64,000 nt of DNA, from IMG/VR virus record IMGVR_UViG_3300044858_002168, positions 1 to 64,000 of that record. One strand, 5' to 3'. The translations under genes and the position numbers were made by a program. A model generated the notes under the pieces. That model ran no database searches, had not been told where the DNA came from, and saw only the letters and a list, made by a program, of their open reading frames with translations. Shown here one piece after another: positions 10,050-62,579 of this stretch (the stretch's first letter is position 1; each line of letters opens with the position of its first letter). The stretch is from an uncultured virus (IMG/VR IMGVR_UViG_3300044858_002168). Taxonomy: Duplodnaviria; Heunggongvirae; Uroviricota; Caudoviricetes.

Positions 10050-13000
10050 ATGAGCAAACAATATCCAGGTGGTTATATAACCAAACTAGCTAGTACTCCA
10101 AACATAATATCTGCTCCAGGTATTTGGACCCTAGATCAGGCTGCCCAGTATATATCTGACGATAGTTGGCCAGGACTGCCTTCAGATCCAAATTTTAATA
10201 ACGTAACACTGTTGTTAAACGGCAACAACATTCAAGGCAGGTCTAACAATTGTTTTATAGACTCCTCGCCTAGTAAAATGGCTTTTACTAGGTCTGGCAA
10301 TACCACTCAGGGCAGTTTTAATCCACACGGCCCGCTGTGGTCAAACTATTTTGATGGCAATAATTATATCTATTATGATGTAACTACATCAAATGCCCCT
10401 GGAACCGATAATTTTTCAGTAGAATGTTTTGTAAATGTTACAAATAATACTGAAAACAGGGGAATTTGCCAGTTCAGTGCCACCAGCACTGGTCTTCAGG
10501 GCAGTAGCAGTGCTACCTTGATGATGCAACTATATAATGGTAATTGGTGGTACCATGCTGGTAATGAGAGCAGAGGTCCCTATGGTACTGTAGTGCCAAA
10601 TAGGTGGTATCACGTTATAATAACAAGATTTAATTCAACAACTTATTTAATTGTAGATGGCACCGCACTACACGCTTTTGGAGATTCTACTAATTACAGT
10701 ACTGCTCGTTACGTGGCAGTAGGTGGAGGTTATGCGAGTGGGTATTTAGGCAAATGTTACATCAGTAATTTTAGGTATATAAAAGGTTTCGCACCATATA
10801 TTGGTGTTTCTTATTCCAGACCAACATCACCTCTTACAAATGTTCAGGGAACTCAACTACTAACTTGTAATAGTAATAGAACCATAGATACTAGTCTTAA
10901 TAACGTACCAGTAACCAGAAGTGGTACTACACTTGTTAAACGGCTAAGCCCATTTAACCCGCCTTCAAAATACGAAACTTCTAACAGTGACATTGGTTGG
11001 TCTAATTTTTTTAATATTAACACAGATCATTTGCAGATACCTTATTCATCACAATTTGCTTTTGATACCGGCGACTTTACAGTTGAGTGCTGGGTAAATT
11101 TTAATTCCAGAAGCACGACATTTTCACCTATAATAATGTTGGGTACTGGTGTTGATGCCATACCTGTTCAGCGATTAGCATCTTGGGCACTGTATGCAGA
11201 TAATAGTGCTAATACATTGGTATTTAATAGATATACTCCTACCAATATAGCCGTTAGTTTTTCTTGGACGCCTGTTTTAAATCGTTGGTACCATATAGCA
11301 GTGTCTAGAAGCGGCACCAGTTTTAGAGCTTTTATAGATGGTGCACAAATAGGAACTACACAAACATCTACAACTAATTACTCTGCTGTTAATACTTCAG
11401 ATCCTTTAGTTATTAGTAGATTTATTGCTTCTGGCGGAGTTGTTTATGGCTTTAACGGTTATATTAGCAATGTTAGAGTACTAAAAGGTACCGCTGTATA
11501 TACCAGTAATTTTTTACCTTCCACAACACCATTAACTGCTATAACCAATACTGCTCTGTTAACCTGTAACAGCAGTACAATTGTAGATAATAGTACGAAC
11601 AGTTTTTCTATAACCAGAAACGGCCTTATCCCTGTAGAAAAATTTAGTCCTTTTCACAGTTCAATAAATGAAAATACTGTCTTAACTCGCAGTGTTTATT
11701 TTAACGGTGCCTCTGTTATAACAGCTAGTAATACTGTAACAAATTTCGGAACAGGAGATTTTACAGTTGAGTGCTGGTTTCGGACTAATGTAATTGATAC
11801 TAGCAGCGATACAATAATTTCTAATTATAATAATGCTAGTGGGGGTTCTATTGGAGTTTATATAAATAGAGGAACCAGTGGTGGTATACAGGTTTATCAA
11901 GGCACAGGTAATACATTGGTATTAAATGCACCAAGTGTTATTACTGCCACTAATACTTGGTATCACATTGCAGTTGCTAGATCAAGTGGGGTATCTAGGT
12001 TATTCCTTAATGGTATATTAATGACCACTGCTACAGACACCAGCAATTATGGTATAGACAATTCTGTAGTTGCCATTGGAGGGGCAAGTGTAAATGGCGT
12101 TTATGGGAGCTTTTTTCAGGGGCTAATATCTAACCTACGTGTGGTTAAAGGTACTGCTCTATACACAAATTTTACTCCGCCTACTGCACCTCTTACTGCT
12201 ATTACTAATACTCAGTTGCTAACTTCTCAAAGTAACCGCTTTGTAGACAATAGCAGCAACGCTTTTACGGTCACTAGTACCGGAGATACAAGCGTTCAAC
12301 CATTTAGCCAATTTGCACCCACAGCATCGTGGAATGCTACTATTAATGGCGGTAGTGCGTACTTTGATGGTAGCGGAGATTACATTTCTGCACCTGCTTC
12401 GGGTTTTGCACTACCTGGAGATTTTACGGTAGAAGCATGGGTTTATATTGCCGGTAACAGCCCTCTAGACGGTGCCAGTCAAAGAAGTGCTGTAATAGCA
12501 TCTACTATGCAAACCAGCAATCCAGTTAGTGGATTTACTTTTTACATTGGTGGTAATTCAGCAATTACTGGCATATTTCTAGCTGCCGAAATGCGTGTAG
12601 GTGGAATTGTTACAGGTTATAGTACATCAGTAAGCATACCACAAGGGGTATGGAATCATATTGCTTTTGTAAGAACTGGCACAACATTAACCTATTATTT
12701 AAATGGTATAAATGTAGGTTCAAGCTCTGGTGTAAGTCAAAACATACCTGTAAATAATGCACTAACTATAGGTGGACAAACTGTTCCTTCGTATACGCGA
12801 GACTTAAATGGATATATATCAAATTTGCGTATAGTAAGCGGTACAGGAGTTTATACTGGTAACTTTACCCCACCCACTGCACTCCTTACTGCTATTACTA
12901 ATACTAGTCTCCTGCTAAATTTCGCTAATGCAGGCATTTACAACGCAGTGTCTAGCAATGTTATAGAGACTGTAGGCAATGCCCAAGTAAGCACTGTACA

Positions 13001-16000
13001 AAGCAAGTGGGGTGGGTCGTCTATTGCATTTGACGGATCGGGTGATCGTTTAGTATCTGCTCCTTCCCCTCTTAATGTATTAGACTCTGGCAATTTTACA
13101 ATTGAATTTTGGTTATACCCAAATAATACTGCATCTGCTTATAGAGCGTTAGTTTCGAGCGAAAATTATCCTTCCACAACTGGCGGATGGACTTTGTATC
13201 AAAACGGCACATCAATCGAGTTTTGGATAACAGGATCATTAATACTCGGCTCTGGATCTTTAGCAATAACCGCAAGCACTTGGCAACATCTAGCTCTTTG
13301 CCGTGCATCGGGTACATTACGTTTGTTTATAAACGGAACAAGTATTGCCTCTGTGTCAAACAGTACATCATTGACAGGTCGGCAAATTTGGATTGGAGAC
13401 AATAATTCTAGCGGCGGCGGACTTTATTTTTACAACGGTTACATAGATGACCTGCGCATTACTCATGGAGTTGCCCGTTATATTACAAACTTCACTGCTC
13501 CTACACAGGCGTTTTCTAATGTAGCAAGTGGAGATCAATTTCTGTCTAATGTTGTACTGTTATTAGCTGATAACGGCACTAATAGTAGTCAGAACAACAC
13601 ATTTATTGATTCTAGTACTAACAACTTTACAATTACCCGCGTTGGCAACACTACACAGGGCACGTTCTCGCCGTTTAGTCAGACAGGATGGAGCAACTAT
13701 TTTGACGGGACAGGAGATTATTTGAGTGTTCCAAGTAATTCGGCTATAGTAGTTGGAAGCTCTGATTTTACCGTCGAAGCATGGATCTATTTAACAACAA
13801 CAGGGCCTTGGACTGGATACATTTTTGGTAAACGAGCGGGTTCAGGCTCTTTGGGAATAATACTCGGTTTTGAAGCAGCAAGTGTTCCTCGTTTATTAGC
13901 GTCAGTTGATGGTAGCAATTGGAATGTCCTCATAAACAGTAGTATTTCTGTTACTCCGCAAACGTGGACTCATATAGCGGCTACTCGCAGTGGAAATTCA
14001 TGGAGACTATTCGTAAATGGTCAACAGGGAGCTACCGCTACAGTCGCAGGAACTGTAGTTGATTCTGGTGCTAACTTGACAATTGGAGCTAATGCTGCTA
14101 ACGGAACAAGTGTATTTCCCAGGGGGTATATAAGCAATTTTAGATTGGTAAAAGGTACGGCTTTATACACAAGTAGTTTTATACCATCTCAGACACCATT
14201 AACCCCATTAACCCCAGTAACAAATACGGCACTATTAACCTGTCAAACAAATGTTATACAGGACAGATCTTCCAATAATTTTTCTATAACCAATAACAAT
14301 AATGCTGTAATAGATCTCAACAGCCCCTTTACAGAAACGTCTTCAGAAACAGCTTTATTGTCAGAAATTGGCAGTTTATATTTTGATGGTGCCGGAGATA
14401 GCCTAATAATACAAGACAACTTAGCTTTAGAGCCTGAAAATAGTAATTTAACTTGGGAAATGTGGATTAATACCACAGTAACAGCACAGTATAGTACATT
14501 ATTTAGTAGATACGCTTCTAGTTTTGGGGCAGGAAGTTGGACTTTATTATTAAACAACACCGCAAGCGCAGGAAACGTTGCTATGTGGTTTTCAGACTTT
14601 AGTGGATCTACGCCATTATTGCTATCTAGTGGAGTCAATGTGTGCGACGCAAGGTGGCACCACATAGCCGTGGTTAGAAACGGCAGTAGTTGGGTCCTTT
14701 ATGTGGATGGCGTTTCTAGGGCTACTGCTACCTGGTCAGGAACTGTATCTAATATAACACCTCCTGTATTGATAGGAGCAGACTCAGTTAACGGAAGAAA
14801 TTATATTGGTTATATTTCTAACCTTCGCATAGTAAAAGGTACTGCACTTTACACTGCCAACTTTATTCCGCCAACATCTTCTCTAACCGCAGTTGCAGGT
14901 ACCTCACTGTTAACTTGTCAAAACAATCTTATAGTAGATAATAGTTCCAATGGTTTTAATATTACTCCAACTAGCAATGTTAGAGCTGATCCATTTAATC
15001 CCTTTACATCAAGTACTCTAGTACCCTATAATAAGTTTGCCTCCGGTGGTAGCGCATCTTTTGACGGTACCGGAGATTGGTTAAGCTCATCATTTAATCC
15101 TTCATTAAATCTGGGACTTCTTCCATTCACTTTTGAAACTTGGGTTTACCCAAATAGTGTTACTGGAATTGTTGGATTGTATGCGGTTTCTGCTGGTGCT
15201 GGTACTGTACCTAAATTTATTGTACATTTAGATGCTGGTACACCAAAAGTACATTATAATGGCCTAACAGGCGGCAGTAATATCTACAACAATGCAACTA
15301 CTGCTATACCAGTCGGCAGTTGGTCACATATTGCATTTGTTAGAGCACTTGACGGTAAGTGGACTTGGTTTGTCAATGGCATACCTTCTGGAACTGGTAC
15401 TAACACTACTGATATAACTTTTACTTCGCAGCCATCTTATATAGGGTATGGGGGTGAAGCAACTTTTACTCCACTCAATGGTTATTTGAGTAGTATGAGA
15501 TTGTTAGCTAATACAACATTGTACACTACTGCATTTATTCCTCCCAGAAGCCCTGTTGTTTCAACAGATCTAAATACGCGACTATCAATGAATTTTACTA
15601 ATGCGGGCATAGTAGACAGTTCTTGTAATACTAACATAGAAGTGTTTGATGGTGCTCACATAAGTACTGTACAGAGCAGGTGGGGCGGTAGCAGTTTGTA
15701 TTTTGACAGTAGTTCAGACAGACTCTTATTTTTAAACTCTCCAGAATATTCGTTTGGTACTGGAAATTTTACTATAGAGTTTTGGTTTAATTCTCAAGAC
15801 ATGAGCGGCAGCACTCAAAGGGGATTTTTACAAACTTCACAGGCTGCCGGAGGATTACATGCTAGTTATACGAGTGGCATAGCTATTTATCAAGGTATAA
15901 ATGGTAGTAATACCCCTACTACTGGTGGAATAGCGGCAAACGTGTTAGGTGCTGTTATTGGTAGCAGTGCTACATTTTCCCCAAATACTTGGCACCATTT

Positions 16001-16235
16001 AGCCTTGGTAAGATCATCTGGCGTAGTAACGCTGTATGTCAATGGTACTGCAAATGGAAGCAGCGCATCTGCTACTGTTGCTGGAGATTTACCCCACGGT
16101 AATTTGGTAATTGGTGGTTATTATAGTGCTAGCTATTTGTATCAAGGATATATAGATGACTTGCGTATTACCCGTGGAGTTGCCCGCTACACTGCGAACT
16201 TCACTCCACCTAGTGCACCCCACTACTTGAGGTAA
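10050..16235 (+). CDS. Large multi-domain concanavalin A-like/LamG tail adhesin
   Basis: About nine repeats of DFTVExW...WxHIAxxR...LFxNG...GYISNLRIVKG. Confidence 0.85.
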   Translation: MSKQYPGGYITKLASTPNIISAPGIWTLDQAAQYISDDSWPGLPSDPNFNNVTLLLNGNNIQGRSNNCFIDSSPSKMAFTRSGNTTQGSFNPHGPLWSNYFDGNNYIYYDVTTSNAPGTDNFSVECFVNVTNNTENRGICQFSATSTGLQGSSSATLMMQLYNGNWWYHAGNESRGPYGTVVPNRWYHVIITRFNSTTYLIVDGTALHAFGDSTNYSTARYVAVGGGYASGYLGKCYISNFRYIKGFAPYIGVSYSRPTSPLTNVQGTQLLTCNSNRTIDTSLNNVPVTRSGTTLVKRLSPFNPPSKYETSNSDIGWSNFFNINTDHLQIPYSSQFAFDTGDFTVECWVNFNSRSTTFSPIIMLGTGVDAIPVQRLASWALYADNSANTLVFNRYTPTNIAVSFSWTPVLNRWYHIAVSRSGTSFRAFIDGAQIGTTQTSTTNYSAVNTSDPLVISRFIASGGVVYGFNGYISNVRVLKGTAVYTSNFLPSTTPLTAITNTALLTCNSSTIVDNSTNSFSITRNGLIPVEKFSPFHSSINENTVLTRSVYFNGASVITASNTVTNFGTGDFTVECWFRTNVIDTSSDTIISNYNNASGGSIGVYINRGTSGGIQVYQGTGNTLVLNAPSVITATNTWYHIAVARSSGVSRLFLNGILMTTATDTSNYGIDNSVVAIGGASVNGVYGSFFQGLISNLRVVKGTALYTNFTPPTAPLTAITNTQLLTSQSNRFVDNSSNAFTVTSTGDTSVQPFSQFAPTASWNATINGGSAYFDGSGDYISAPASGFALPGDFTVEAWVYIAGNSPLDGASQRSAVIASTMQTSNPVSGFTFYIGGNSAITGIFLAAEMRVGGIVTGYSTSVSIPQGVWNHIAFVRTGTTLTYYLNGINVGSSSGVSQNIPVNNALTIGGQTVPSYTRDLNGYISNLRIVSGTGVYTGNFTPPTALLTAITNTSLLLNFANAGIYNAVSSNVIETVGNAQVSTVQSKWGGSSIAFDGSGDRLVSAPSPLNVLDSGNFTIEFWLYPNNTASAYRALVSSENYPSTTGGWTLYQNGTSIEFWITGSLILGSGSLAITASTWQHLALCRASGTLRLFINGTSIASVSNSTSLTGRQIWIGDNNSSGGGLYFYNGYIDDLRITHGVARYITNFTAPTQAFSNVASGDQFLSNVVLLLADNGTNSSQNNTFIDSSTNNFTITRVGNTTQGTFSPFSQTGWSNYFDGTGDYLSVPSNSAIVVGSSDFTVEAWIYLTTTGPWTGYIFGKRAGSGSLGIILGFEAASVPRLLASVDGSNWNVLINSSISVTPQTWTHIAATRSGNSWRLFVNGQQGATATVAGTVVDSGANLTIGANAANGTSVFPRGYISNFRLVKGTALYTSSFIPSQTPLTPLTPVTNTALLTCQTNVIQDRSSNNFSITNNNNAVIDLNSPFTETSSETALLSEIGSLYFDGAGDSLIIQDNLALEPENSNLTWEMWINTTVTAQYSTLFSRYASSFGAGSWTLLLNNTASAGNVAMWFSDFSGSTPLLLSSGVNVCDARWHHIAVVRNGSSWVLYVDGVSRATATWSGTVSNITPPVLIGADSVNGRNYIGYISNLRIVKGTALYTANFIPPTSSLTAVAGTSLLTCQNNLIVDNSSNGFNITPTSNVRADPFNPFTSSTLVPYNKFASGGSASFDGTGDWLSSSFNPSLNLGLLPFTFETWVYPNSVTGIVGLYAVSAGAGTVPKFIVHLDAGTPKVHYNGLTGGSNIYNNATTAIPVGSWSHIAFVRALDGKWTWFVNGIPSGTGTNTTDITFTSQPSYIGYGGEATFTPLNGYLSSMRLLANTTLYTTAFIPPRSPVVSTDLNTRLSMNFTNAGIVDSSCNTNIEVFDGAHISTVQSRWGGSSLYFDSSSDRLLFLNSPEYSFGTGNFTIEFWFNSQDMSGSTQRGFLQTSQAAGGLHASYTSGIAIYQGINGSNTPTTGGIAANVLGAVIGSSATFSPNTWHHLALVRSSGVVTLYVNGTANGSSASATVAGDLPHGNLVIGGYYSASYLYQGYIDDLRITRGVARYTANFTPPSAPHYLR

Positions 16236-40714: not shown

Positions 40715-41467
40715 TTATGCTTTCTTTAAAAATTGAGTTAAATTGTCAACGATTGTTATACCGTATTGTTCTGCTTTTTTACGCTTAGAACTGTTGTCAT
40801 TAGCTTCGTCTACCAAGTAACTCAGTGTTTTTGTAACACTGTCAACTACTTTGTACCCGGCTGTGACCAGTGCTTCACTGGCCTCACTCTTGGTCTTAAA
40901 CGAAGTCAATTTACCTGTGATACAAACAGTTGGTCCGCTTGTACTGTGGGTAACTTGAACGTTGGAACGGAAAGAGAACGGTAAAAACTCCTTCAATTCC
41001 TTGTATTCTGTTTCTAGCCAATCCATCAAATTGCTTGTGGCTTTGTCTCCCAATCCTGCTTGTTTACACTTTTCGTGGTCGATTTCGTCAATGTGGGCCA
41101 CAGCACCAGCAATCTTGTTGCTGGCTGTGGTTCCAATCAGTGGAATGGAAAAACTACTCAACACTGTTGCCAAGTCAGCACCCCTGGCTTTATCAATCTC
41201 ACCCAATAGTTTGATGGCCACCTTTGTGCTGCCCAGTGCCTCGACCAATTGATCTTGTTCTAGGTAAAAGATTTCTGTCAAGTCGCTCAGTTGAAGCTTC
41301 TCCACAGTTTTAGGGCCAAAACCCTTGATGCCCAGTGTCTTACAAAAGTGTTCTACTTTTGAGTATAACTGAGCACTGCAACCAACATTGCGACAAAACA
41401 GTTGGTCGTTGACTTGTTGGAGTGTGTAGTCACAGCAGGGGCAGTTGGTTGGAATGAGGATCTTCAT
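40715..41467 (-). CDS. ligB: NAD-dependent DNA ligase subunit B (Zn finger, HhH, BRCT)
   Basis: PTNCPCC...FCRNVGC, GIKGFG, CITGKL BRCT. Confidence 0.9.
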   Translation of the reverse strand: MKILIPTNCPCCDYTLQQVNDQLFCRNVGCSAQLYSKVEHFCKTLGIKGFGPKTVEKLQLSDLTEIFYLEQDQLVEALGSTKVAIKLLGEIDKARGADLATVLSSFSIPLIGTTASNKIAGAVAHIDEIDHEKCKQAGLGDKATSNLMDWLETEYKELKEFLPFSFRSNVQVTHSTSGPTVCITGKLTSFKTKSEASEALVTAGYKVVDSVTKTLSYLVDEANDNSSKRKKAEQYGITIVDNLTQFLKKA

Positions 41468-41562: not shown

Positions 41563-42510
41563 CTACTCTACCTTGTAGACAATTTCGGGAATGATTTCAC
41601 CTGCCCTGCGAATCGCCACTCGGTCACCGATGTGTAAGTCTAGGGCTCGGATAAATCCTGGATTGTTTAAAGTGGCACGGCTTACCATGGCATCACCTAC
41701 TAACACTGGCTCCAAGATTGCGACAGGAGTTACCTTGCCAGTCTTGCCCACACCCCACTCTACATCCAGTAGCACAGTTTCAACGCACTCACCACGAGTC
41801 TTTTTGGCATACGCTCCACGAGGATGTTTTGCAGTATAGCCTAACTGTTCAAAAGTCTGGTTACTGTCTACACGAAACACCACACCGTCTGTGGGATAGA
41901 TGTGGTGTAGGTTGTCGTCAAATACGGTGTTGAAACCCCAGCTCTTCAAACACTTCAAGTCCCAGGTATAGCTTGGTGTCAGGGCTGGAGTGCACTGATA
42001 AGCAAAGAACTCCACACTGCGGGTGGAGAACTCCTCCAATGAACCCAGGTTGAGAGCACCTGCTGCATAGTTGCGGCTGTTTTCCACATGGGCTGGGGCA
42101 CATACTTCGCCTGTGACCTGAAGCACCCCACTCTGGTCGATGGTCTTGGGCACAAGTCGGGCCAGTTTGGGTGTAACATCGCGCCCCTCTTTGCCATCCC
42201 CTCGGGTTAGTGCACGCACAAACACTCCGTCTACATACAGAAGGGACACAGCCGCGCCGTCCAGTTTGGGAGTCATTACCACATTGGTATAGTGTTCAAA
42301 CAGTGGGTTAGGGCGGTCTTCGTCTTCGTACCACTTTTGCAGTGAGTACATGGGGTACAAGTGCCGTTGTACATCGCCATGCTGAACAGCGCCTACTTTG
42401 TTGTAGCCACAGCTTTCAGCAAGATTGTCAAACTGTTCGTCTGAAATAATAGGTGTACCATTGTAGTAGTGACGACTGGCATTGTCTAAAAACTCTGTTA
42501 GATTGTTCAT
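41563..42510 (-). CDS. ligA: NAD-dependent DNA ligase subunit A (adenylation + OB)
   Basis: PKLDG, TRGDG, SRNYAAG, DGVV, RATLNN, RAGEIIP. Confidence 0.92.
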   Translation of the reverse strand: MNNLTEFLDNASRHYYNGTPIISDEQFDNLAESCGYNKVGAVQHGDVQRHLYPMYSLQKWYEDEDRPNPLFEHYTNVVMTPKLDGAAVSLLYVDGVFVRALTRGDGKEGRDVTPKLARLVPKTIDQSGVLQVTGEVCAPAHVENSRNYAAGALNLGSLEEFSTRSVEFFAYQCTPALTPSYTWDLKCLKSWGFNTVFDDNLHHIYPTDGVVFRVDSNQTFEQLGYTAKHPRGAYAKKTRGECVETVLLDVEWGVGKTGKVTPVAILEPVLVGDAMVSRATLNNPGFIRALDLHIGDRVAIRRAGEIIPEIVYKVE

Positions 42511-44879: not shown

Positions 44880-44951
44880 TTTTATTAAGACACCGCACTT
44901 ACAGAGGTAACGCGTACCACGGCTAGATCTCGCCTCAATGTCTTAATAAAA
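44880..44951 (-). ncRNA. Stem-enclosed small RNA cassette
   Basis: ttttattaagaca / tgtcttaataaaa inverted repeat. Confidence 0.5.
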
Positions 44952-44952
44952 T

Positions 44953-45275
44953 GCCACATGATTTGTAACAAGGACATGTGGCCAAACCCTGGCTCAGCTA
45001 GTTTTTTAGGCTGCTAGAGCGTAAACGCTGTCGTTTGCATTTAAGTTTTTGCTGTTTCGGATTGAGAAACCCCAACCCTACGGCTTTCACATTGCCGGGT
45101 TGCCGTCTTCACTATCTCACGCTGTCGAAACCACATCCGGCCCATCAAAAACATATTAGTACACAGTTTTCCCATTTCAGGTTTTAGAGTACCTTATCGG
45201 GCTAATATGCTTTTGGTGGACCGGGGCGGGAATGATCCGCCGTCCAACATGCCTTCGATCTGACAGAATTACAAC
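44953..45275 (-). ncRNA. ssrA: Circularly permuted (two-piece) tmRNA
   Basis: The acceptor piece ending CCGGTCC-ACCA (45214) precedes the coding piece starting GGGCCGG-ATGTGGTTTCGAC (45143). G3:U pair; tag ORF ANDSVYALAA* at 45038-45006. Outer ends approximate. Confidence 0.92.
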
Positions 45276-45397
45276 CATATTCTACTACAATCGGGACTCG
45301 AACCCGTATGCGACCCGTTCTTCCTGGCCTGTCTACTCTGTATCCGGATTTAGGAGTAAACTATCGGTGTTCCAGTGTAGTCGGCTAAGTAGTGGTA
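45274..45397 (-). ncRNA. Small RNA with T-arm motif upstream of tmRNA
   Basis: CGGG-TTCGAGT-CCCG hairpin; 3' end AATATGGT resembles the cassette family. Confidence 0.45.
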
Positions 45398-51690: not shown

Positions 51691-51750
51691 GATTTCCTCA
51701 GCCAAAACATTATTATAGACTAAAGGATTATCAAAATCAAGATTAAATTT

Positions 51751-51824
51751 TGGTGGAGATAGGGAGAGTCGAACTCCCGTAAACAGCTTGCAAAGCTGCC
51801 GTAATACCATTATACTATATCCCC
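51751..51824 (-). tRNA. tRNA-Ala(TGC)
   Basis: G3:U70, CCA. Confidence 0.95.
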
Positions 51825-51825
51825 G

Positions 51826-51904
51826 TGGTCTGAGTGGCAGGATTCGAACCTGCGGCCTCTCACTTCCAAGGCGAGCCGTCTGACCTAGCTGACAATACAC
51901 TCAG
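51826..51904 (-). tRNA. tRNA-Pro(TGG)
   Basis: C1:G72, A73. Confidence 0.9.
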
Positions 51905-52408: not shown

Positions 52409-52471
52409 GTTTTCCTCACAATTAAAAGATTATTTTAGTCTAAAAGAACGCACACTTCAAGTGTAAAATTT

Positions 52472-52545
52472 TGGTTGCGTGGCCTCTGAATCGAACAGGT
52501 CCTGAGGGTTATGAGCCCTCCGTGCTTCCATCACACTCGCCCGCA
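52472..52545 (-). tRNA. tRNA-fMet-like(CAT)
   Basis: GAGGG-CTCATAA-CCCTC three-GC anticodon stem; irregular acceptor stem. Confidence 0.75.
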
Positions 52546-55922: not shown

Positions 55923-56912
55923 TCAGTGACCAACTTCAAGACAGAATTTATCGGCTGCCAAGTTCTTCATCTTCGACTCCAGCATGATATCATGCGTGTT
56001 GGAGAAACTGTAGGCCCAGCAGTTACTAGCCGTATTCCAGTAGTAATCACTGTGAGCACGCAGTTGGGTTTTTGTGTATCCCAAATACAACAGCTCTACC
56101 AAGTCTGGTAACAGGTCTGGGTCCCAGCCGTCTAACACTTCTTCTCGACTGAGTGAGTAGTGGATTACAGGACGCACGCCGCGCCAGCTTTCCATCATCC
56201 TTAAGACTCGACTATCACTTGGTTGGATATACTCACCAGTTCTAATTAGGTGATGGTGAATGTCCAACACAAGAGCGCAATCGTTGACCAGTTCCAGACT
56301 GGCGTCCACTCCCCACTTGAACTCGTCGTTTTCTACAGTGATAACATTTCGTGCTTCACGGCTCAACTTCTTCAACGCAGCTTTAAAGCCAGTTGGGCCA
56401 GCCTTGCCGCCAATGTGGATGTTGCATTTAAAGTCTTGGAAAACTTTGCCGTACCCCATGTAACGGATCAAGTCTACGTGATACTCGAATTCCTGGATAG
56501 AGTTCTCCACAACTTGTGGATTCTCAGATCCCAACACACAAAACTGGCCTGGATGAAAACTCAGTCTTACGTCCAATTCTCGAGCACGATTGCCTACCTT
56601 CATCAATTCACGTTCTAGGAAGGTCACTGTGTCGTGTTCCCAGTAGAACCAGCTCCAGTCGTCGTGAGTATATGCGGGTAACACATCGCTGCTTATACGC
56701 AGCATACGCCGACCAGGTGGCAGGGCTCCCACATGGTTTACCTGACTCATTAAAGCCACTACGTTGTGCTTCATCAAGTCTGTCAACTTTTCAACAGCCC
56801 TTTGACGGGTGGCTGAATTCAACCACGTAATAGTGGTGGTCTTGATGTTGGGGACACTTAGTTCTTCGAACTTGCAGGCAAAGCCGACTCTGTTGATTTG
56901 TTGATTAAACAT
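55923..56912 (-). CDS. uvsE: UV damage endonuclease
   Basis: GFAC, RISSD, RLSFHPGQF, VEND, VLDIHHH, RAHSD, DIMLESKMK; promoter at 56935-56963. Confidence 0.92.
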   Translation of the reverse strand: MFNQQINRVGFACKFEELSVPNIKTTTITWLNSATRQRAVEKLTDLMKHNVVALMSQVNHVGALPPGRRMLRISSDVLPAYTHDDWSWFYWEHDTVTFLERELMKVGNRARELDVRLSFHPGQFCVLGSENPQVVENSIQEFEYHVDLIRYMGYGKVFQDFKCNIHIGGKAGPTGFKAALKKLSREARNVITVENDEFKWGVDASLELVNDCALVLDIHHHLIRTGEYIQPSDSRVLRMMESWRGVRPVIHYSLSREEVLDGWDPDLLPDLVELLYLGYTKTQLRAHSDYYWNTASNCWAYSFSNTHDIMLESKMKNLAADKFCLEVGH

Positions 56913-56964
56913 AGTTGTAGTTGATTAAAACACTATTTTATATCAAATGACTATAACAATCAAG

Positions 56965-57561
56965 TCAGGGATTTACAAGGTAAAAGGCTTTGCTAAAGCC
57001 CAATGGTGTCATACTTCGTAGTTCTTTTGTTTTTTCACTCTTGCCGCCCAGCCTCATAATGGGACTATTGCCCAATGAGGGCTCAACAGGCTTTTTCTCT
57101 GGGGTATTGAAGGTTCCCCACAGTCCGGTACGCTTGTTGTAGGCCTCGGTTGATGGATCGGATAGATAGCCAGCAAACTCGCAGGGATTGAAATACCATG
57201 GTGTTCCCAGTTCTGGGAACAATTTGTTCAACCGGCCCACAGGGTTTTCAATTGCCCAAACACGCGGTTTGTAGTAGTGGATCAATTCTAGGGTCTTGGA
57301 CACCAGGTCCATGCTAGCCTCAGTGCGACCATCGTTGTCTTTGGTCTTCCAGTACTGAGCACCGCTTGAGGCAAAGTCAGTACAGGGTGGAGCTGCGAGT
57401 ATGATTCCTATCTCTGAGGCCGGAATGTCGTCTGGTGTTAGGTCCAGTATGTCCACACCAAGTTTGACGTCTACTTGGTAGACTTCGTAGCCGCTTTCAC
57501 GGTAGGGACTACTCCATCGGCCGCTAAAGTCAAACAATGACAGTACTGTTTTACATTCCAT
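56965..57561 (-). CDS. C5 cytosine DNA methyltransferase-like protein
   Basis: LSLFDFSG, PPCTDF, ENPVG. Confidence 0.8.
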   Translation of the reverse strand: MECKTVLSLFDFSGRWSSPYRESGYEVYQVDVKLGVDILDLTPDDIPASEIGIILAAPPCTDFASSGAQYWKTKDNDGRTEASMDLVSKTLELIHYYKPRVWAIENPVGRLNKLFPELGTPWYFNPCEFAGYLSDPSTEAYNKRTGLWGTFNTPEKKPVEPSLGNSPIMRLGGKSEKTKELRSMTPLGFSKAFYLVNP

Positions 57562-57757
57562 AAAATCGATTACATACTTTGCAAATTGGGTTGCCGTCCA
57601 AGTCTGGGATCAATTCTGTACTACGAAACCAGATACTACAATTGCTGCAGGTTTCGATGGTGGGAATGTCTGCTTCTTCCACTGGGATGTTGAACTCCAA
57701 ACACGCTTCCAATAAACTCTTCTTTTTACGGTACAGGGACTTCTCTAGTTCATTCAT
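57551..57757 (-). CDS. Zinc-finger protein
   Basis: CSNC...CKVC. Confidence 0.65.
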   Translation of the reverse strand: MNELEKSLYRKKKSLLEACLEFNIPVEEADIPTIETCSNCSIWFRSTELIPDLDGNPICKVCNRFYGM

Positions 57758-58260
57758 CTTTTAAAACGGTCATCATTGTTGTATCGGTCCTTGTACTTGC
57801 TGTAGTAAATCAGGAAAATTACATTGCAGCCAGCGTGGGCTAGGTGGCTCAGTCCACTTTCAGGGTCCAAGTCCTCACCACGACTCCAGGCGAATAAATG
57901 GCGGAACAGTGAGCTTAACACTCGGGTATAACGGAAACCATCTCCTTGGGTCCAGTTGTGGGCAGCGTACTTACGAGCACCAAACTCCAATACCTTGTTG
58001 ATTTCTTCTACCGCCTCAAACGGCATCAAACTCCAGTCCGTTTTACCACTGTCATATTTAACTGCAGTGGCCTCAGTTTTAGGGTCTGGAGTTGGGTCCA
58101 CAGTAACCTTAGATAAAACAGGCGGACTGTCCTGTACTGTGACTGTGATGTTAACAGGCGGACTGTCCTGTACTGTGACTGTGATGTTGTCATCACCAGG
58201 GGTTGGAAATGGATGGTCAAAGTCTTTCCAGAACTGTTGTAGGTCTGATCGAGAATTCAT
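57754..58260 (-). CDS. dATP/dGTP diphosphohydrolase N-terminal (DUF5664-like) protein
   Basis: KYDSGK, GARKYAAHNW, RHL...DPESGLSHLAHA; duplicated NITVTVQDSPPV. Confidence 0.8.
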   Translation of the reverse strand: MNSRSDLQQFWKDFDHPFPTPGDDNITVTVQDSPPVNITVTVQDSPPVLSKVTVDPTPDPKTEATAVKYDSGKTDWSLMPFEAVEEINKVLEFGARKYAAHNWTQGDGFRYTRVLSSLFRHLFAWSRGEDLDPESGLSHLAHAGCNVIFLIYYSKYKDRYNNDDRFKR

Positions 58261-58525
58261 AGATGGTTGAGTTAGGTTGATAGTTGGGGGCCCGGGATCG
58301 CACCGGGCACACAGATGGCCATCTGTGTTGCAGATCTTACCCTCTGGCTCGGTAATAACTTCACGTTATTCAAAACAGCACTTGGCATACAGATCCGTAC
58401 TGTTGGGTAGAGCTACTGCACTGGTTTCAAGCAGTTTGTATAGTTCTGCTTTCATGAGATACAGCTTATGGACAGTTTAGTTTTTTCATGGCTTTCGCTC
58501 GTGCAGGGTAAACGTCAAAACCCCG

Positions 58526-58705
58526 TTAATTATCCAGTGGCCAAGGTTTAAAGAGGGCCGGCTCTTTGCGAGATAGTTTATCCACTACTGGCATTTCCAA
58601 CACAGGTTTGGCGCCACCAACCAGTTTGTAGTATTTGTGGTATACTGGCAGCAACTTACTGCACAAGTTTTCAAGGTCTTTAACGTACTGGTTGTCGTTG
58701 TTCAT
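58526..58705 (-). CDS. Hypothetical protein
   Basis: GAGG RBS; promoter TTGCGC-17-TATAAT at 58728-58756. Confidence 0.6.
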   Translation of the reverse strand: MNNDNQYVKDLENLCSKLLPVYHKYYKLVGGAKPVLEMPVVDKLSRKEPALFKPWPLDN

Positions 58706-58793
58706 GGTGGTATCCTCGCTATTTCGTATTATAGCACTATACCTGGACCCGCGCAAATCAAAAATTCTTTTGCTCATAGATTAAATTTAGATA

Positions 58794-58834
58794 AAACAAA
58801 AGCCACCGTGCCTTTAACAGCAGGGTGGCTTTTG
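58794..58834 (-). terminator. Intrinsic terminator closing the ncRNA block
   Basis: CAAAAGCCACC...GGTGGCTTTTG-TTTT. Confidence 0.8.
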
Positions 58835-59760
58835 AACCGATCGAGTTTTTGTTGCCTGTAGAAATTCAGACTGGGGTAACCCCCAGTATTCTACGAGTAC
58901 GTATTCGGCTTGTTGGCCAGGCGTTACAGGGATTTTCCAACCTCCCACTACAGTGTTCTAGTTTACGCTAGCTGTACGGATTTAAGTGTTTGTTTACCCG
59001 GTTGACTCCGGGGAAAGTTAGTTTACGGCAACTTCAGTCTATCACGTATGGACTCTGGGTCCCATATACCCACTGGTTTCGGTACCAACACACTAGTCGT
59101 AAAACTATGGTGGTTGGGTTTCGAAGTACCGACTAGATTTGATTAAACCGTTTACAAGTACAGGCTGTAACTGACCTCAGGCACGGATTTTTCTGTCCAG
59201 GCTAAAGCCCCGCCCTTCCCGGTCAATCCGGAGGCCGATATGTTTTTTGACAGACACCACTCTCTCACTCTGACAGGCTGATTACTGTCCCTGGCGTGGA
59301 TTTAGATGACAGCCGTTGTGTACATAAATGCAGTGACTTCGGGCAAGTCTGACGCTACCACACATGATGCGTGTGTATCACAGTTAGTTGGTCGGTTCGG
59401 TATTTGATTTCCAATCCTTATACCTTGGCGGAGTATTGATAAACTATTAGAGTCGCCCCTCTTTAGTTTATTCGCTAGTGGGATTCCAGACCCACATTAC
59501 AGGATATATCCTGCTCTTGTTGTTCAGGTTGTGTGTTCCTGAGTTAGAAGATAGCTGTATTTTACAGACTTCTTTGTCTGCGAGTTTAACGTCACCTCAC
59601 CGTGGACGCGAGCATTTAAGGCAGTCTCGAAGCCGCAAATGTTTACCGTAGCCTGAAAGAAGCTGGTGTGGGTGTCATATTAACCGCCTTGCGAGCGGCC
59701 CTCACCATCGAAGGCTTAGGGAGTAAACCTGTCTGCCGAAACCTCAACAGTATAATCTAC
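58835..59760 (-). ncRNA. Candidate large structured ncRNA (GOLLD/ROOL-like size and context)
   Basis: No credible ORF; multiple GNRA-type hairpins and long-range complementarity on the minus strand. Confidence 0.6.
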
Positions 59761-59763
59761 GAA

Positions 59764-59967
59764 TTAAACACTTTAGGATTTGGAGAAACGAACGTGCTGC
59801 TTTGCTCAGAGAACTTTTCCAATTATTCCGTTCGACAACGCATAGAAACTCAAATATGCCTATTCGGTTTCTAGGATCTAGTTGGGCAGTGGGCATAGAC
59901 TCTTATCGCGTCTAGCGTGATCTTTGTCCTAGGCATTAGGACCTTTCTCCAAATTCTAAAGAGTTTG
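59764..59967 (-). ncRNA. Long-stem-enclosed RNA cassette
   Basis: ctttaggatttggagaaa / tttctccaaattctaaag inverted repeat. Confidence 0.5.
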
Positions 59968-60073
59968 TAGAGGGCTGTGGCTCGGTGACGTAGCTTGTCC
60001 ACAATTAAGTCGTATCACGTAGCAGTAATATATCGCTGTGACCGCTGACACCCTTTTCTCAACAATAAAATCT

Positions 60074-60102
60074 ATTATACACTAACGGGTAGTTACCATC
60101 AA
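60074..60102 (-). promoter_or_regulatory. Sigma70-type promoter driving ncRNA block
   Basis: TTGATG-17-TATAAT. Confidence 0.75.
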
Positions 60103-60117
60103 GTGTAAATTTTTATA

Positions 60118-60223
60118 CCATATTGAAACACACTGCTGGATCCTGACTACCGTTTACAACTATTAAGTCTACTGCCGTATTCCTAGTCTAGTGTAAAACT
60201 CGCCACAATGCGTTTCAATATGG
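60118..60223 (-). ncRNA. Stem-enclosed small RNA cassette
   Basis: ccatattgaaacacactg / caatgcgtttcaatatgg. Confidence 0.7.
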
Positions 60224-60394
60224 CAACAAGCCGATCTCCGCTATTATAGATCACATTCGTCCCCATATTACGCCGGCAGGGATAGCGGTAAGTAGTTACA
60301 GTTGATACGTGCTGGTAGCCAATTTATCCGACTCGAACGGACAGCTTACTAATGACATGCCTGTCACTGCTTTCTCAACATCTACACTTGTTTA

Positions 60395-60457
60395 CCATAT
60401 TGAAACACACTATGCCACGCTCTGAACCTGGGCTCTTAGTAATATGCTTCAATATGG
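60395..60457 (-). ncRNA. Stem-enclosed small RNA cassette
   Basis: ccatattgaaacacacta / taatatgcttcaatatgg. Confidence 0.7.
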
Positions 60458-60495
60458 CGACCCATTGTGGGGTGGACTTCGAAACCACCATTTCG

Positions 60496-60568
60496 CTGCG
60501 TTTTGACCACTAAACTAACGTTCCTTGGAAGGACCGTACGGGATTCGAACCCATGTCTCCTGCGTTTT
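60496..60568 (-). ncRNA. Permuted tRNA-like element (T arm, acceptor hairpin, D arm)
   Basis: A 3' half ending TCCA precedes a 5' half; no anticodon arm. Confidence 0.65.
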
Positions 60569-60635
60569 CCCTTAAAACTACCACGGGTCATCGGAGTCAT
60601 GACTTCCGACTATGTTAAAAGTTAATTACTCTTTT

Positions 60636-60758
60636 ACCATAGTTTAACACACTGCACTATCTAGATGGATCAGTAGCTGTATTCCGGAATTATCTACTAT
60701 CCCCACCCTACGCTCCCGTGGACCTTTGGGAATGGCTTGCAATGTATTAAACTATGGT
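60636..60758 (-). ncRNA. Stem-enclosed small RNA cassette
   Basis: accatagtttaacacactgca / tgcaatgtattaaactatggt. Confidence 0.7.
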
Positions 60759-60821
60759 TTGTCTCACACAATAAATATATTATTGCACAAACAACAAAAT
60801 GTTTCAAGACAATAATCTTTA

Positions 60822-60958
60822 ACCATATTTCAGCACACTGATTAGGGAATCGAACCCTTTACGACTGCGCTTTTGTATCACCATGACATAGTATTACCTA
60901 TTGTGGCAGGATTCGAACCTGCTTCTACGTTGACCACGTCAGTGTGCTGAAATATGGT
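60822..60958 (-). ncRNA. Stem-enclosed cassette with two T-arm motifs
   Basis: 20-bp perfect inverted repeat; GCAGG-TTCGAAT-CCTGC and AGGG-TTCGATT-CCCT. Confidence 0.7.
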
Positions 60959-61035
60959 CCCGTCGCGTCACTGAACGGGTACGGTTTCCATGGCCGTGAA
61001 AGGATAACTCCACCATGTACACACCAAAACGCACT

Positions 61036-61160
61036 TACCATATTTTAACACACTGTCGTTTCGCGTTCACTTCTAGAATCACCAGATTACGAATTTCTGG
61101 AACTTCACAGCTTACAAGGCTGGTCGTCAAACTACTGGGGCAGTGTGCTAAAATATGGTA
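61036..61160 (-). ncRNA. Stem-enclosed small RNA cassette
   Basis: taccatattttaacacactg / cagtgtgctaaaatatggta, starting at the tRNA-Glu CCA. Confidence 0.7.
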
Positions 61161-61230
61161 CTCAGTACGGGAGTCGAACCCGTCTTTCCGGCGTGAAAGG
61201 CCAGCGTCCTAACCAATAGACGAACCGAGC
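61156..61230 (-). tRNA. tRNA-Glu(TTC)
   Basis: Loop CTTTCAC, CCA. Confidence 0.93.
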
Positions 61231-61375
61231 ATGTTACTGGTTACGTGTCCAGTGTACCAGCGCCAGGTACCGCGACAGCCGCTCATTGAGGGATAACACC
61301 GTGCTGGCTAGGCACTAGCGGATATTTGACGCATATCTACGGTCAACGCTGAGGCGGTTGACATACCTACGAGTC

Positions 61376-61490
61376 GGGTCTTTCTTCTCACATTGTGATG
61401 CTACCAAGCAGTTTCCGGACTAAAACGTTGGGCGTAAGCTAAGGGTCGTTCCTCTCACATTAAGATGCTATCGGGCACAATGCCAGACCT
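61376..61490 (-). repeat. Two imperfect ~47-nt direct repeats (tandem RNA motif)
   Basis: gggtc..tctcacatt..gatgcta...gca...gac at 61376 and 61443. Confidence 0.7.
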
Positions 61491-61509
61491 ATATCACCCA
61501 ACAAACTCT

Positions 61510-61538
61510 ATTATACAGGGTTGACAATCGCTTTTCAA
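61510..61538 (-). promoter_or_regulatory. Sigma70-type promoter
   Basis: TTGAAA-17-TATAAT. Confidence 0.75.
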
Positions 61539-61798
61539 GACAACAATTATCAACCCTGTACAACAGGGAATCGAAACAGACCTTGGATAGGTAACGACTC
61601 CTATCTGTATCTAGCTTTCATGGCTGCCACTCACATACTGCCCTTTCCACGTCTAGCTCAGAGAGCTACTCGCGCTGATATTCAGAGAAAATCAGCTCTA
61701 TTGCCACATGGATAGTGCCTATGACTGTTGGGGCTTACCACTACCGATATTTTTGTCGCACAAGGATCGCCAAGGGTCTCCTCATCAACAGAAACATT

Positions 61799-61827
61799 AT
61801 TATGACACAAAAGGCAACAGACTTCAA
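61799..61827 (-). promoter_or_regulatory. Sigma70-type promoter
   Basis: TTGAAG-17-CATAAT. Confidence 0.65.
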
Positions 61828-61851
61828 ATGAAAATTTCTGTTGCCTTGACC

Positions 61852-62154
61852 TCAGAACCGGGCTGCGATCAACACCAGTTGGTCGCGGCTGCACTTGGAG
61901 AGGCTGTCCAACACACCGGCCTCAAAGCCCATGCCCGCCTCGATACGAGCCACCAGGTCCTCCTTGGTCAGCCGGCTGGAAGCAGTCTTGGTCTTGGCCA
62001 CGTACACGCCCTCGCGGCTCAGCTTGGCAACCACTGATCGAACAGTACGGCTCAGTTCGCGGGCAATCATTTCCACAGGCATACCTGCGGTGTACCGAGC
62101 CACCAGGTCTTGGGTTTGTTCAGGGGTGTAGTTCACATTCTTTGCTTCAGACAT
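61852..62154 (-). CDS. HTH DNA-binding protein, T5 A2/D3-like
   Basis: YTPEQT...RSVVAKLSREGVYVAK...TKEDLV; AGGAG RBS; promoter at 62184-62212. Confidence 0.7.
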   Translation of the reverse strand: MSEAKNVNYTPEQTQDLVARYTAGMPVEMIARELSRTVRSVVAKLSREGVYVAKTKTASSRLTKEDLVARIEAGMGFEAGVLDSLSKCSRDQLVLIAARF

Positions 62155-62195
62155 TGCTTTCTCCTTTGTCGATCAATAAAACTATTTTAGAGAGT

Positions 62196-62399
62196 TTAGG
62201 TTTTCTGTTCAAACTCAAATTTTTCAAACTGTTCTGGCCAACAGATCTTGAAGTGCTCAACCAGGCTGTTCATTGACCAACGATAGAAATCATTTTCTAG
62301 TCGGTCGCCAACAAAGTCCATCATGTCGGCCTTGCTCATCTCGGCAATAGTAAGGTTGACCATCTTCTGAATCATGTTGTGTAGGTCTGTATCGGTCAT
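62196..62399 (-). CDS. Hypothetical protein
   Basis: AAGGA RBS; promoter at 62431-62459. Confidence 0.65.
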   Translation of the reverse strand: MTDTDLHNMIQKMVNLTIAEMSKADMMDFVGDRLENDFYRWSMNSLVEHFKICWPEQFEKFEFEQKT

Positions 62400-62579
62400 T
62401 TTTTGAATCCTTTGGCTATCGAATAAATCTATTATCTCTCAAAACAGACCACACTTCAAACTCAAAATCTTTGATGTACTGTGACAGCCAAGACCTTTTT
62501 AGACACCAACGACAACACAATTTCAGTAGCCGTTGGTATCGGTAGAAGCCGGTGGTTACCCTTTCCATCGAATAAATCT

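Follow-up and report, generated by a model that had tools for sequence, protein, structure and literature searches.

To our knowledge, very few bacterial or phage non-coding RNAs (ncRNAs) exceed 600 nucleotides (nt), and there are two known phage classes of such size: GOLLD and ROOL. GOLLD self-assembles into a 14-mer nanocage, and ROOL, whose lengths start at about 600 nt, into an octameric one. In the part of a recent account that we draw on, both are described as phage RNAs that sit beside transfer RNA (tRNA) islands, form RNA-only cages and have unknown functions (10.1101/2024.12.08.627333). The same part of that source states that GOLLD was first found in lake metagenomes, that many of its members exceed 800 nt, and that it is conserved in its 3' region and less so in its 5' region; for ROOL it gives a 659-nt example, abundance where this was measured, and no known protein partner (10.1101/2024.12.08.627333). 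Here we report a further locus in this niche, from a 64,000-nt stretch of DNA of an uncultured tailed virus (positions 1 to 64,000 of the IMG/VR record IMGVR_UViG_3300044858_002168), which as a whole is termed the window below. Its minus strand very probably carries a stand-alone gene for a very large folded ncRNA, here called the giant RNA, of a family that lies outside Rfam and belongs to a small clade of T5-like freshwater phages. A preliminary description of this DNA had recognized a large ornate ncRNA and had left the choice between membership in GOLLD or ROOL and a new giant class. The Rfam models of GOLLD and ROOL both fail to match; the new class is supported by covariation in eight homologous sequences, the lack of coding capacity, a promoter and terminator of its own, contigs from RNA libraries and the lack of any Rfam match.

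The family was collected along several routes. Starting from the neighbouring endonuclease gene, 13 IMG/VR loci were gathered, two of which (contigs L003 and L004) carry RNA-like DNA. A scan of metagenomes for a 20-mer of the most highly conserved block, which lies in the domain termed D3, yielded six loci, two of them identical and thus five distinct. The family hence comprises eight distinct sequences: the window, the two IMG/VR contigs and five metagenome contigs, with pairwise identities of 72-93% among homologues. Five copies are full-length (1,084-1,272 nt) and three are partial (588-865 nt). Further IMG/VR pattern scans returned just L003 and L004 as carriers, and an IMG/VR search with an alignment of the 59-amino-acid (aa) open reading frame (ORF) downstream of the RNA recovered the same two and a third contig, L037, which was rejected as a carrier for want of any likeness to the RNA. 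Four candidates from an IMG/VR pattern scan (L028 and L030-L032) were discarded as chance matches, having no nhmmer hit at E<=1. Two pattern scans of genome contigs returned no homologue, and blastn of the stretch against 50,697 phage records gave no match. Across the family, hairpins that vary in both arms at once lie between near-invariant blocks, and some homologues have entire hairpins that others lack.

The limits of the gene are set by this comparison. Conservation among the homologues begins at a promoter and stops at a terminator: the promoter-like site at 60102-60074 on the minus strand matches the consensus at 10 of 12 positions and is kept in register in all seven homologues that reach so far, and the terminator is kept in 6/6, its sole change being one C/U in a stem pair (C-G to U-G). 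Taken alone, neither signal type is above chance in the window-wide scans (13 promoter sites against 7.1+-2.7 expected; 6 terminator sites against 4.4+-2.1); they carry weight because both are conserved in register among homologues, not because of their scan scores. The conserved interval therefore places the gene from about 60066 to 58797. The preliminary description had identified both signals correctly, with the promoter at 60102-60074 and the terminator at about 58834, but its extent for the RNA (58835-59760, 0.6-0.9 kb) is too short: the RNA starts some 300 nt further 5' than 59760, at about 60066, and has a length of about 1.27 kb, of which the claimed stretch is the 3' two-thirds. The promoter scan of the window finds no further promoter-like site inside the gene on the minus strand. 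By its signals, the locus is thus a predicted stand-alone transcription unit, with a host-type promoter and an intrinsic terminator that are both its own and conserved. Sites of this promoter type are also seen at 52471, 51751 and 61838 (minus strand) in the tRNA region, and we take the type to resemble the strong early promoters of T5.

The predicted fold is a multi-domain structure kept by compensatory changes. RNAalifold on the eight sequences gives 257 pairs, and standard pairs make up 96.1% of the 1,756 pair cells, as against 36-44% when the partners are slid by 1-3 columns. Forty-six of the 257 pairs are changed on both sides; with shuffled 3' letters the number is 22.1+-2.8 and none of 500 shuffles reached 46, while the slid controls give 3-8. 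Because the structure was chosen on the same data as the pair counts, a coding-DNA control was run: in 1.3 kb of adjacent coding DNA from the same five genomes, taken through the same pipeline, 18 of 372 pairs are changed on both sides and 69 on one, whereas in the five-genome comparison of the RNA 58 of 329 are changed on both sides and 24 on one. The two alignments are similar in divergence, with identities of 84% for the coding DNA and 82% for the RNA, and 375 and 393 variable columns, respectively. In the alignment G.U cells number 165 and A.C cells 19, a bias that speaks for the minus strand as the RNA; the structure having been predicted on that strand, this is supportive and not decisive.

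Could the region be protein-coding after all, by way of small ORFs or a recoded stop codon? Short ORFs are indeed present, and the largest between promoter and terminator has 68 aa, in agreement with the preliminary description, which had seen no credible ORF there. None of them is conserved among the homologues. Under the standard code no open frame exceeds 115 codons in any of the eight sequences, and with any one stop (TGA, TAG or TAA) reassigned to sense no frame spans the region in any of them. Of 77 indels relative to the window sequence only 6 are multiples of three, the other 71 not, and the neighbouring genes read normally in table 11. The interval 58778-61707 is the longest stretch in the window without an ORF of at least 75 aa (2,930 nt, against at most 1,003 nt elsewhere). 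We give a coding role next to no chance; judged by its reading frames, the giant RNA gene cannot code for protein.

The comparison with known RNA families took in all 4,227 Rfam families, at the gathering threshold and at E<=10. No family was found on the RNA strand by gathering score or at E<=10, whether the query was the window, a 3-kb segment, the 1,272-nt RNA alone with the laxest filters, or four homologues. At E<=10 one model alone hits the RNA interval, and it does so on the other strand: an unrelated thermometer model, which scores 16.8 bits where its cut-off is 125 bits. No Rfam model of group I or II introns, RNase P RNA, transfer-messenger RNA (tmRNA), rRNA, OLE, raiA, HEARO or self-cleaving ribozymes matches in the RNA, and the GOLLD and ROOL models have no match at E<=10 in the 3-kb segment, the RNA alone or the four homologues. 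The Rfam search suggested in the preliminary description thus leaves the RNA among neither GOLLD, ROOL, OLE, RNase P nor the introns.

In niche and style the RNA resembles the two giant phage classes. Like GOLLD, the giant RNA is phage-encoded, very large, multi-domain, placed beside tRNA genes, built of conserved and variable parts and found in lake samples; its layout is not plainly that of GOLLD, with the middle domains D2 and D3 and the 3' domain conserved here and one 5' sub-domain and the central region variable. It differs in lacking a match to the Rfam model, in being longer (1.08-1.27 kb) and in being carried by T5-like phages. With ROOL it shares the occurrence as a phage or prophage RNA near tRNA islands, and it is set apart from it by the lack of a model match, about twice the length (1,084-1,272 against ~600-660 nt) and a freshwater, not rumen or gut, origin. 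Among T5-like phages themselves, the tRNA region of T5 encodes small stable RNAs of ~100 nt, made from host-type early promoters; these are likewise non-coding and lie among tRNA genes, but the giant RNA is more than 10 times larger. One might suppose that the RNA belongs to GOLLD or ROOL after all but has diverged too far for the Rfam models. The niche is the same, with adjoining tRNA genes in a phage, great size and a mixture of variable and conserved parts, and the lake origin that the cited part of the source gives for GOLLD (10.1101/2024.12.08.627333) recurs in the lake and freshwater runs that hold the giant RNA. However, neither model matches at E<=10 even with the laxest filters on the 1,272-nt RNA or with the four homologues, and the RNA is 1.3-2 times longer than typical members as the cited part of that source gives them (10.1101/2024.12.08.627333); we consider such a membership very unlikely. 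By the Rfam models and by length, the giant RNA is a predicted new family of the same broad kind as GOLLD and ROOL.

No description of it was found in the literature on GOLLD and ROOL, large structured phage RNAs, tRNA islands and T5 stable RNAs. An IMG/VR survey of structured RNAs, in the part of it considered here, reports motifs averaging 67 nt (PMC10690425). The contig identifiers of L003 and L004 are absent from the six supplements of that survey that were searched (files 1, 2 and 4 are not among these), and short pieces of the RNA may be listed there (PMC10690425).

The sequence of the giant RNA is present in environmental RNA of four freshwater studies. In a word index the stretch occurs in 20 runs of 17 studies, all of them from lakes or freshwater; six of these runs, from four studies, are metatranscriptomes and hold 27-51% of the words of the RNA. 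Contigs were placed on 56500-62500 for one RNA run per study (four runs), and cover 58842-59925 with word depths up to ~200. In three runs contigs have their first position at 58842-58845, without a loose end, which hints weakly that the stable 3' end immediately precedes the terminator stem. No contig covers the flanks (56500-58710 and 60118-62500), bar a bin at tRNA-Glu in one run, and this contrast is not counted as evidence. Some contigs skip 186, 348-350 or 525 nt. Splicing as the cause was rejected: the skips match module-lacking variants that are seen as DNA in the homologues, and hence are strain variants.

Several points weigh against the reading of the locus as one large folded RNA. 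The comparison has eight sequences only, all of one narrow clade and some of them partial; five were selected by the 20-mer from D3, the invariance of which in L020-L025 is so by construction. A single alignment supplied both structure and pair counts, a good many helices do not vary and so carry no information, and there are competing pairings, such as two partners each for the 3' UCGGUU and for GUUUAAUUCGUAG. The single-sequence folding energy lies modestly below that of shuffled sequences (z = -2.21 on the minus and -1.27 on the plus strand, 20 shuffles each), so that the case for a fold rests on covariation. The RNA evidence consists of assembled contigs, which are blind to strand, ends and level; the 5' 340 nt are thinly covered, in one run only, and the primary transcript may be trimmed to a shorter mature RNA. 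On a rival reading there is not one functional RNA: the transcript could be a precursor cut into smaller stable RNAs, or a chain of independent elements, and only a 3' part of ~0.9 kb (58842-59730) would be stable. It is on this part that the library contigs mostly lie, the 5' third being the poorly covered one, and the hairpin modules are gained and lost independently. The contigs, however, are unable to rank parts of the gene. Moreover, by way of the covarying helix P3, which has a span of ~170 nt, the 5' variable domain is closed directly onto D2, an 8-base-pair (bp) pairing between D2 and D3 is possible in 7/8 sequences, and the gene has a single conserved promoter and terminator with no promoter-like site between them on its strand. 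A cut precursor or chain of elements is therefore unlikely, and a single large folded RNA is the reading that we follow in laying out its parts (Table 1).

Table 1. Coordinates of the giant RNA gene, its predicted parts and its neighbours, in positions of the window
Feature	Position	Strand	Remarks
Giant ncRNA gene	58797..60066	-	Start (about 60066) predicted from the -10 hexamer; end at the terminator hairpin; ~1,270 nt
Promoter, sigma70-type	60074..60113	-	A/T-rich block upstream; -35 TTGATG 60102-60097; 17-nt spacer; -10 TATAAT 60079-60074
5' domain	59975..60054	-	Closing helix 60050-60054 with 59971-59975; hairpins P1 and P2; helices 2-5
P1, variable-length hairpin	60009-60049	-	Two pairs changed on both sides; 15-nt deletion in L023
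P2, hairpin	59975-60004	-	Three pairs changed on both sides; three stem types
P3, long-range helix	59944-59961 with 59771-59788	-	~18 bp; one conserved A.C mismatch
Variable branched domain enclosed by P3	59789-59943	-	Helices 7-15; 23 of the 46 double-changed pairs
D2, conserved domain	59639..59771	-	~133 nt; 92% column identity; model R1 (43 pairs); helices 16-21
Variable hairpin insertion	59609..59638	-	0 nt in five homologues, ~30 nt in the window, ~90 nt in L020 and L024
D3, conserved domain	59474..59608	-	Two small hairpins, then a four-way junction; model R2 (36 pairs); helices 22-29
Central variable region	59136..59473	-	Whole hairpin modules present or absent between homologues
3' domain	58835..59132	-	Nested helices; helices 32-46
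Intrinsic terminator	58797..58834	-	15-bp hairpin, then UUUUGUUUU; inner stem 58823-58803; helix 47
tRNA-Glu (UUC)	61156..61230	-	Upstream, on the same strand as the RNA
ORF-free mosaic spacer	60114..61155	-	Between tRNA-Glu and the promoter; ~1 kb in the window, ~120 nt in L003
59-aa orphan ORF	58526..58705	-	Just downstream; own promoter-like site and Shine-Dalgarno sequence
Recurring promoter type	52413-52498, 51693-51778, 61780-61865	-	A/T-rich block, TTGA, 17-nt spacer, TAtAAT, then ATGTTTT

Many of the compensatory changes fall in the 5' 300 nt. The outermost pair of P3 is C-G in 4/7 and U-A in 3/7 sequences. In D2 a GGUG/CACC helix becomes GGUC/GACC among the homologues, and its inner hairpin occurs with three different stems. 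The four-way junction of D3 (59474-59555) has a cloverleaf-like layout, the last arm of which, a 5-bp stem with an 8-nt loop, abuts the closing helix; the latter changes from GCUA/UAGC to GCGU/ACGC in L021 and L022, and one arm covaries. The D2-D3 pairing mentioned above, which comes from a scan for covariation, would join 59656-59663 with 59568-59575. In the central region of the window a module of the form AAAUCC...CAGCCUGU occurs twice, and a pseudoknot is possible between a hairpin loop at 59453-59457 and 59427-59431 in 5/7 sequences, with GGCGA/UCGCC in some and GGCGG/CCGCC in others. The 3' domain contains a hairpin (59079-59132) with an invariant GUUUUACGAC loop, and its end is closed by two helices, of 58889-58897 with 58856-58863 and of 58905-58910 with 58835-58840; here the double-changed pairs include four in helix 46 and three in helix 37, and helix 32 has C-G in three sequences and U-A in three. 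Two short words, AAAUCC and GUAAAC, have five copies each on the RNA strand. As DNA, AAATCC is found nowhere else in the 4.3-kb locus, and 10/200 shuffles reached five copies.

The finer structural details of the preliminary description fared less evenly. It had seen many hairpins with GNRA-type loops; the sequences it quoted are present, but conserved tetraloops they are not: other homologues have UCU or UUAU in place of the GCAA loop, GTAA lies within loops of 6 to 10 nt, and GAAA is a junction. The long-range pairing GAACCGA/TCGGTTC, thought to close a large domain, is full in 3/6 homologues, keeps 5/7 pairs in two and 4/7 in one, and has a local rival, AGCCGA/TCGGTT, which is fully paired in 5/6. 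As to a second such pairing, GCCAGG/CCTGGC, one partner is wholly missing in 3/6 homologues. The recurrence of a sequence was seen rightly: within the 4.3-kb locus AAATCCGT is found twice on the RNA strand and not in the flanks. The errors in extent, GNRA loops and long-range helices leave the interpretation as a giant ncRNA standing, because it does not rest on them. Four further candidate motifs proved unsupported: a boxA-like CUCUUUA at P3, which differs among homologues; an 11-nt-receptor-like CCUAAG...GAUGG, which has one base too many; a Shine-Dalgarno-like GAGGUGA in D3, which is partly within a stem and invariant partly by construction; and a 6-nt complementarity of the invariant loops 59105-59096 and 58967-58962, which offers no covariation as a test.

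The carrier is, as judged by its genes, an uncultured T5-like (Demerecviridae-like) freshwater phage of a small clade. The window has a T5-like gene content: a D5-like regulator, a split NAD-dependent ligase, SbcCD, a DNA polymerase, a primase and helicases. The polymerase is 49% identical to those of the Demerecviridae (Myunavirus, Thalassavirus, Tequintavirus). An Rfam scan of the window finds 21 tRNAs and a permuted tmRNA. The gene order of the carriers is: tRNA-Glu, a mosaic spacer (~120 nt to 1 kb), the RNA, the 59-aa ORF and a dATP/dGTP diphosphohydrolase. Wherever the sequence of a homologue extends to it (L003, L004, L020, L023 and L024), tRNA-Glu lies directly upstream of the RNA. The 59-aa ORF accompanies the RNA in L003, L004, L022 and L023, and occurs in 0/4 records that lack the RNA; it has no Pfam family, and its matches are 13 clusters, all at least 70% identical. 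ORF callers extend it to 83 aa (58706-58777, minus strand), but the extension is conserved only at the positions of the -35 and -10 hexamers, and therefore the short 59-aa form with its own promoter is more likely.

Relatives that lack the RNA keep the diphosphohydrolase and the next ORF, without the 59-aa ORF, and have their tRNA-Glu inside the main tRNA island. More distant relatives are of ~98 kb, one of them with terminal repeats. In 11 more distant IMG/VR loci nhmmer found no homologue of the RNA within +-10 kb of the endonuclease, and the models R1 and R2 had no match in ten of them (L017 was outside this search). In the whole records of seven more distant relatives, four of which are at least 90% complete, R2 has no match at E<=1, and R1 likewise has none in the five of them to which it was applied; as a positive control, R2 finds 3/3 RNA-bearing records. 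Three cultured Demerecviridae gave chance-level hits only with R1 and R2 (E 0.4-0.7, ~10 bits).

A further possibility is that the RNA is, or is left over from, a mobile element (an ORF-less group I or II intron, a retroelement or a satellite RNA) that landed beside tRNA-Glu. More distant relatives have the flanking genes without the cassette made up of tRNA-Glu, the RNA and the 59-aa ORF, and the upstream spacer is a mosaic. On the other hand, no intron, ribozyme or retron RNA family is found at E<=10, there is no reverse transcriptase or integrase among the 42 proteins of the window that were scanned, and the gene has its own promoter and terminator instead of flanking exons. A mobile-element origin is accordingly left with a slim chance. 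The spacer itself has several features of note. Two arms of 20 nt (60822-60841 and 60939-60958) form a perfect inverted repeat in it, positions 60903-60922 duplicate 20 nt of a tRNA-Pro (51834-51853), and 60538-60580 weakly match part of a tRNA (E 1.7); these elements look like debris of tRNA genes or further small RNAs.

As to function, the giant RNA may be an abundant architectural RNA like GOLLD and ROOL, tied to the translation apparatus or serving as a sink for a host factor; we put this forward tentatively, as a reading that may well be wrong. It would be made by the host polymerase early in infection and would fold into a compact particle, possibly a self-associating one, that could act on or alongside the translation apparatus (the phage tRNAs or ribosomes) or sequester a host factor. 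Such an RNA would be neither a messenger nor a cis-regulator, and co-occurrence is the sole ground for naming the product of the 59-aa ORF as a candidate partner. It counts against this functional part that it draws on analogy with GOLLD and ROOL, the functions of which are themselves given as unknown in the part of the source cited (10.1101/2024.12.08.627333). A bolder version, which we regard as doubtful, would add a third class to the giant ornate RNAs of phages: the giant RNA would be the largest to date, would have no sequence relationship to GOLLD and ROOL, and would be a self-assembling multimer that engages the translation apparatus (phage tRNAs or host ribosomes) early in T5-like infection; if this were true, RNA-only megastructures would be a recurrent phage invention and not two curiosities. 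Independently of these proposals, a separate family of 1.1-1.3 kb in the niche of GOLLD and ROOL is a third case for asking what such RNAs do. The T5-like lineage has genetically tractable cultured members, and the combination of near-invariant cores with swappable hairpins makes the RNA a good target for cryo-electron microscopy and for tracing the evolution of large RNAs.

Other features of the window concern the phage as a whole. The permuted tmRNA (44915-45306, minus strand) is of the two-piece, betaproteobacterial type and encodes the tag ANDSVYALAA, the versions of the relatives having other tags; its type hints at a betaproteobacterial host of the carrier phage. The NAD-dependent DNA ligase is split in two adjoining genes (40715-41467 and 41563-42510, minus strand), which we take to be a trait of T5-like phages. 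At the other end of the window two very long ORFs lie on the plus strand: one of 2,496 aa (400-7890), which has one match only, at its C-terminus, to a family of unknown function; and one of 2,061 aa (10050-16235) with repeated matches to baseplate-wedge and virion structural families.

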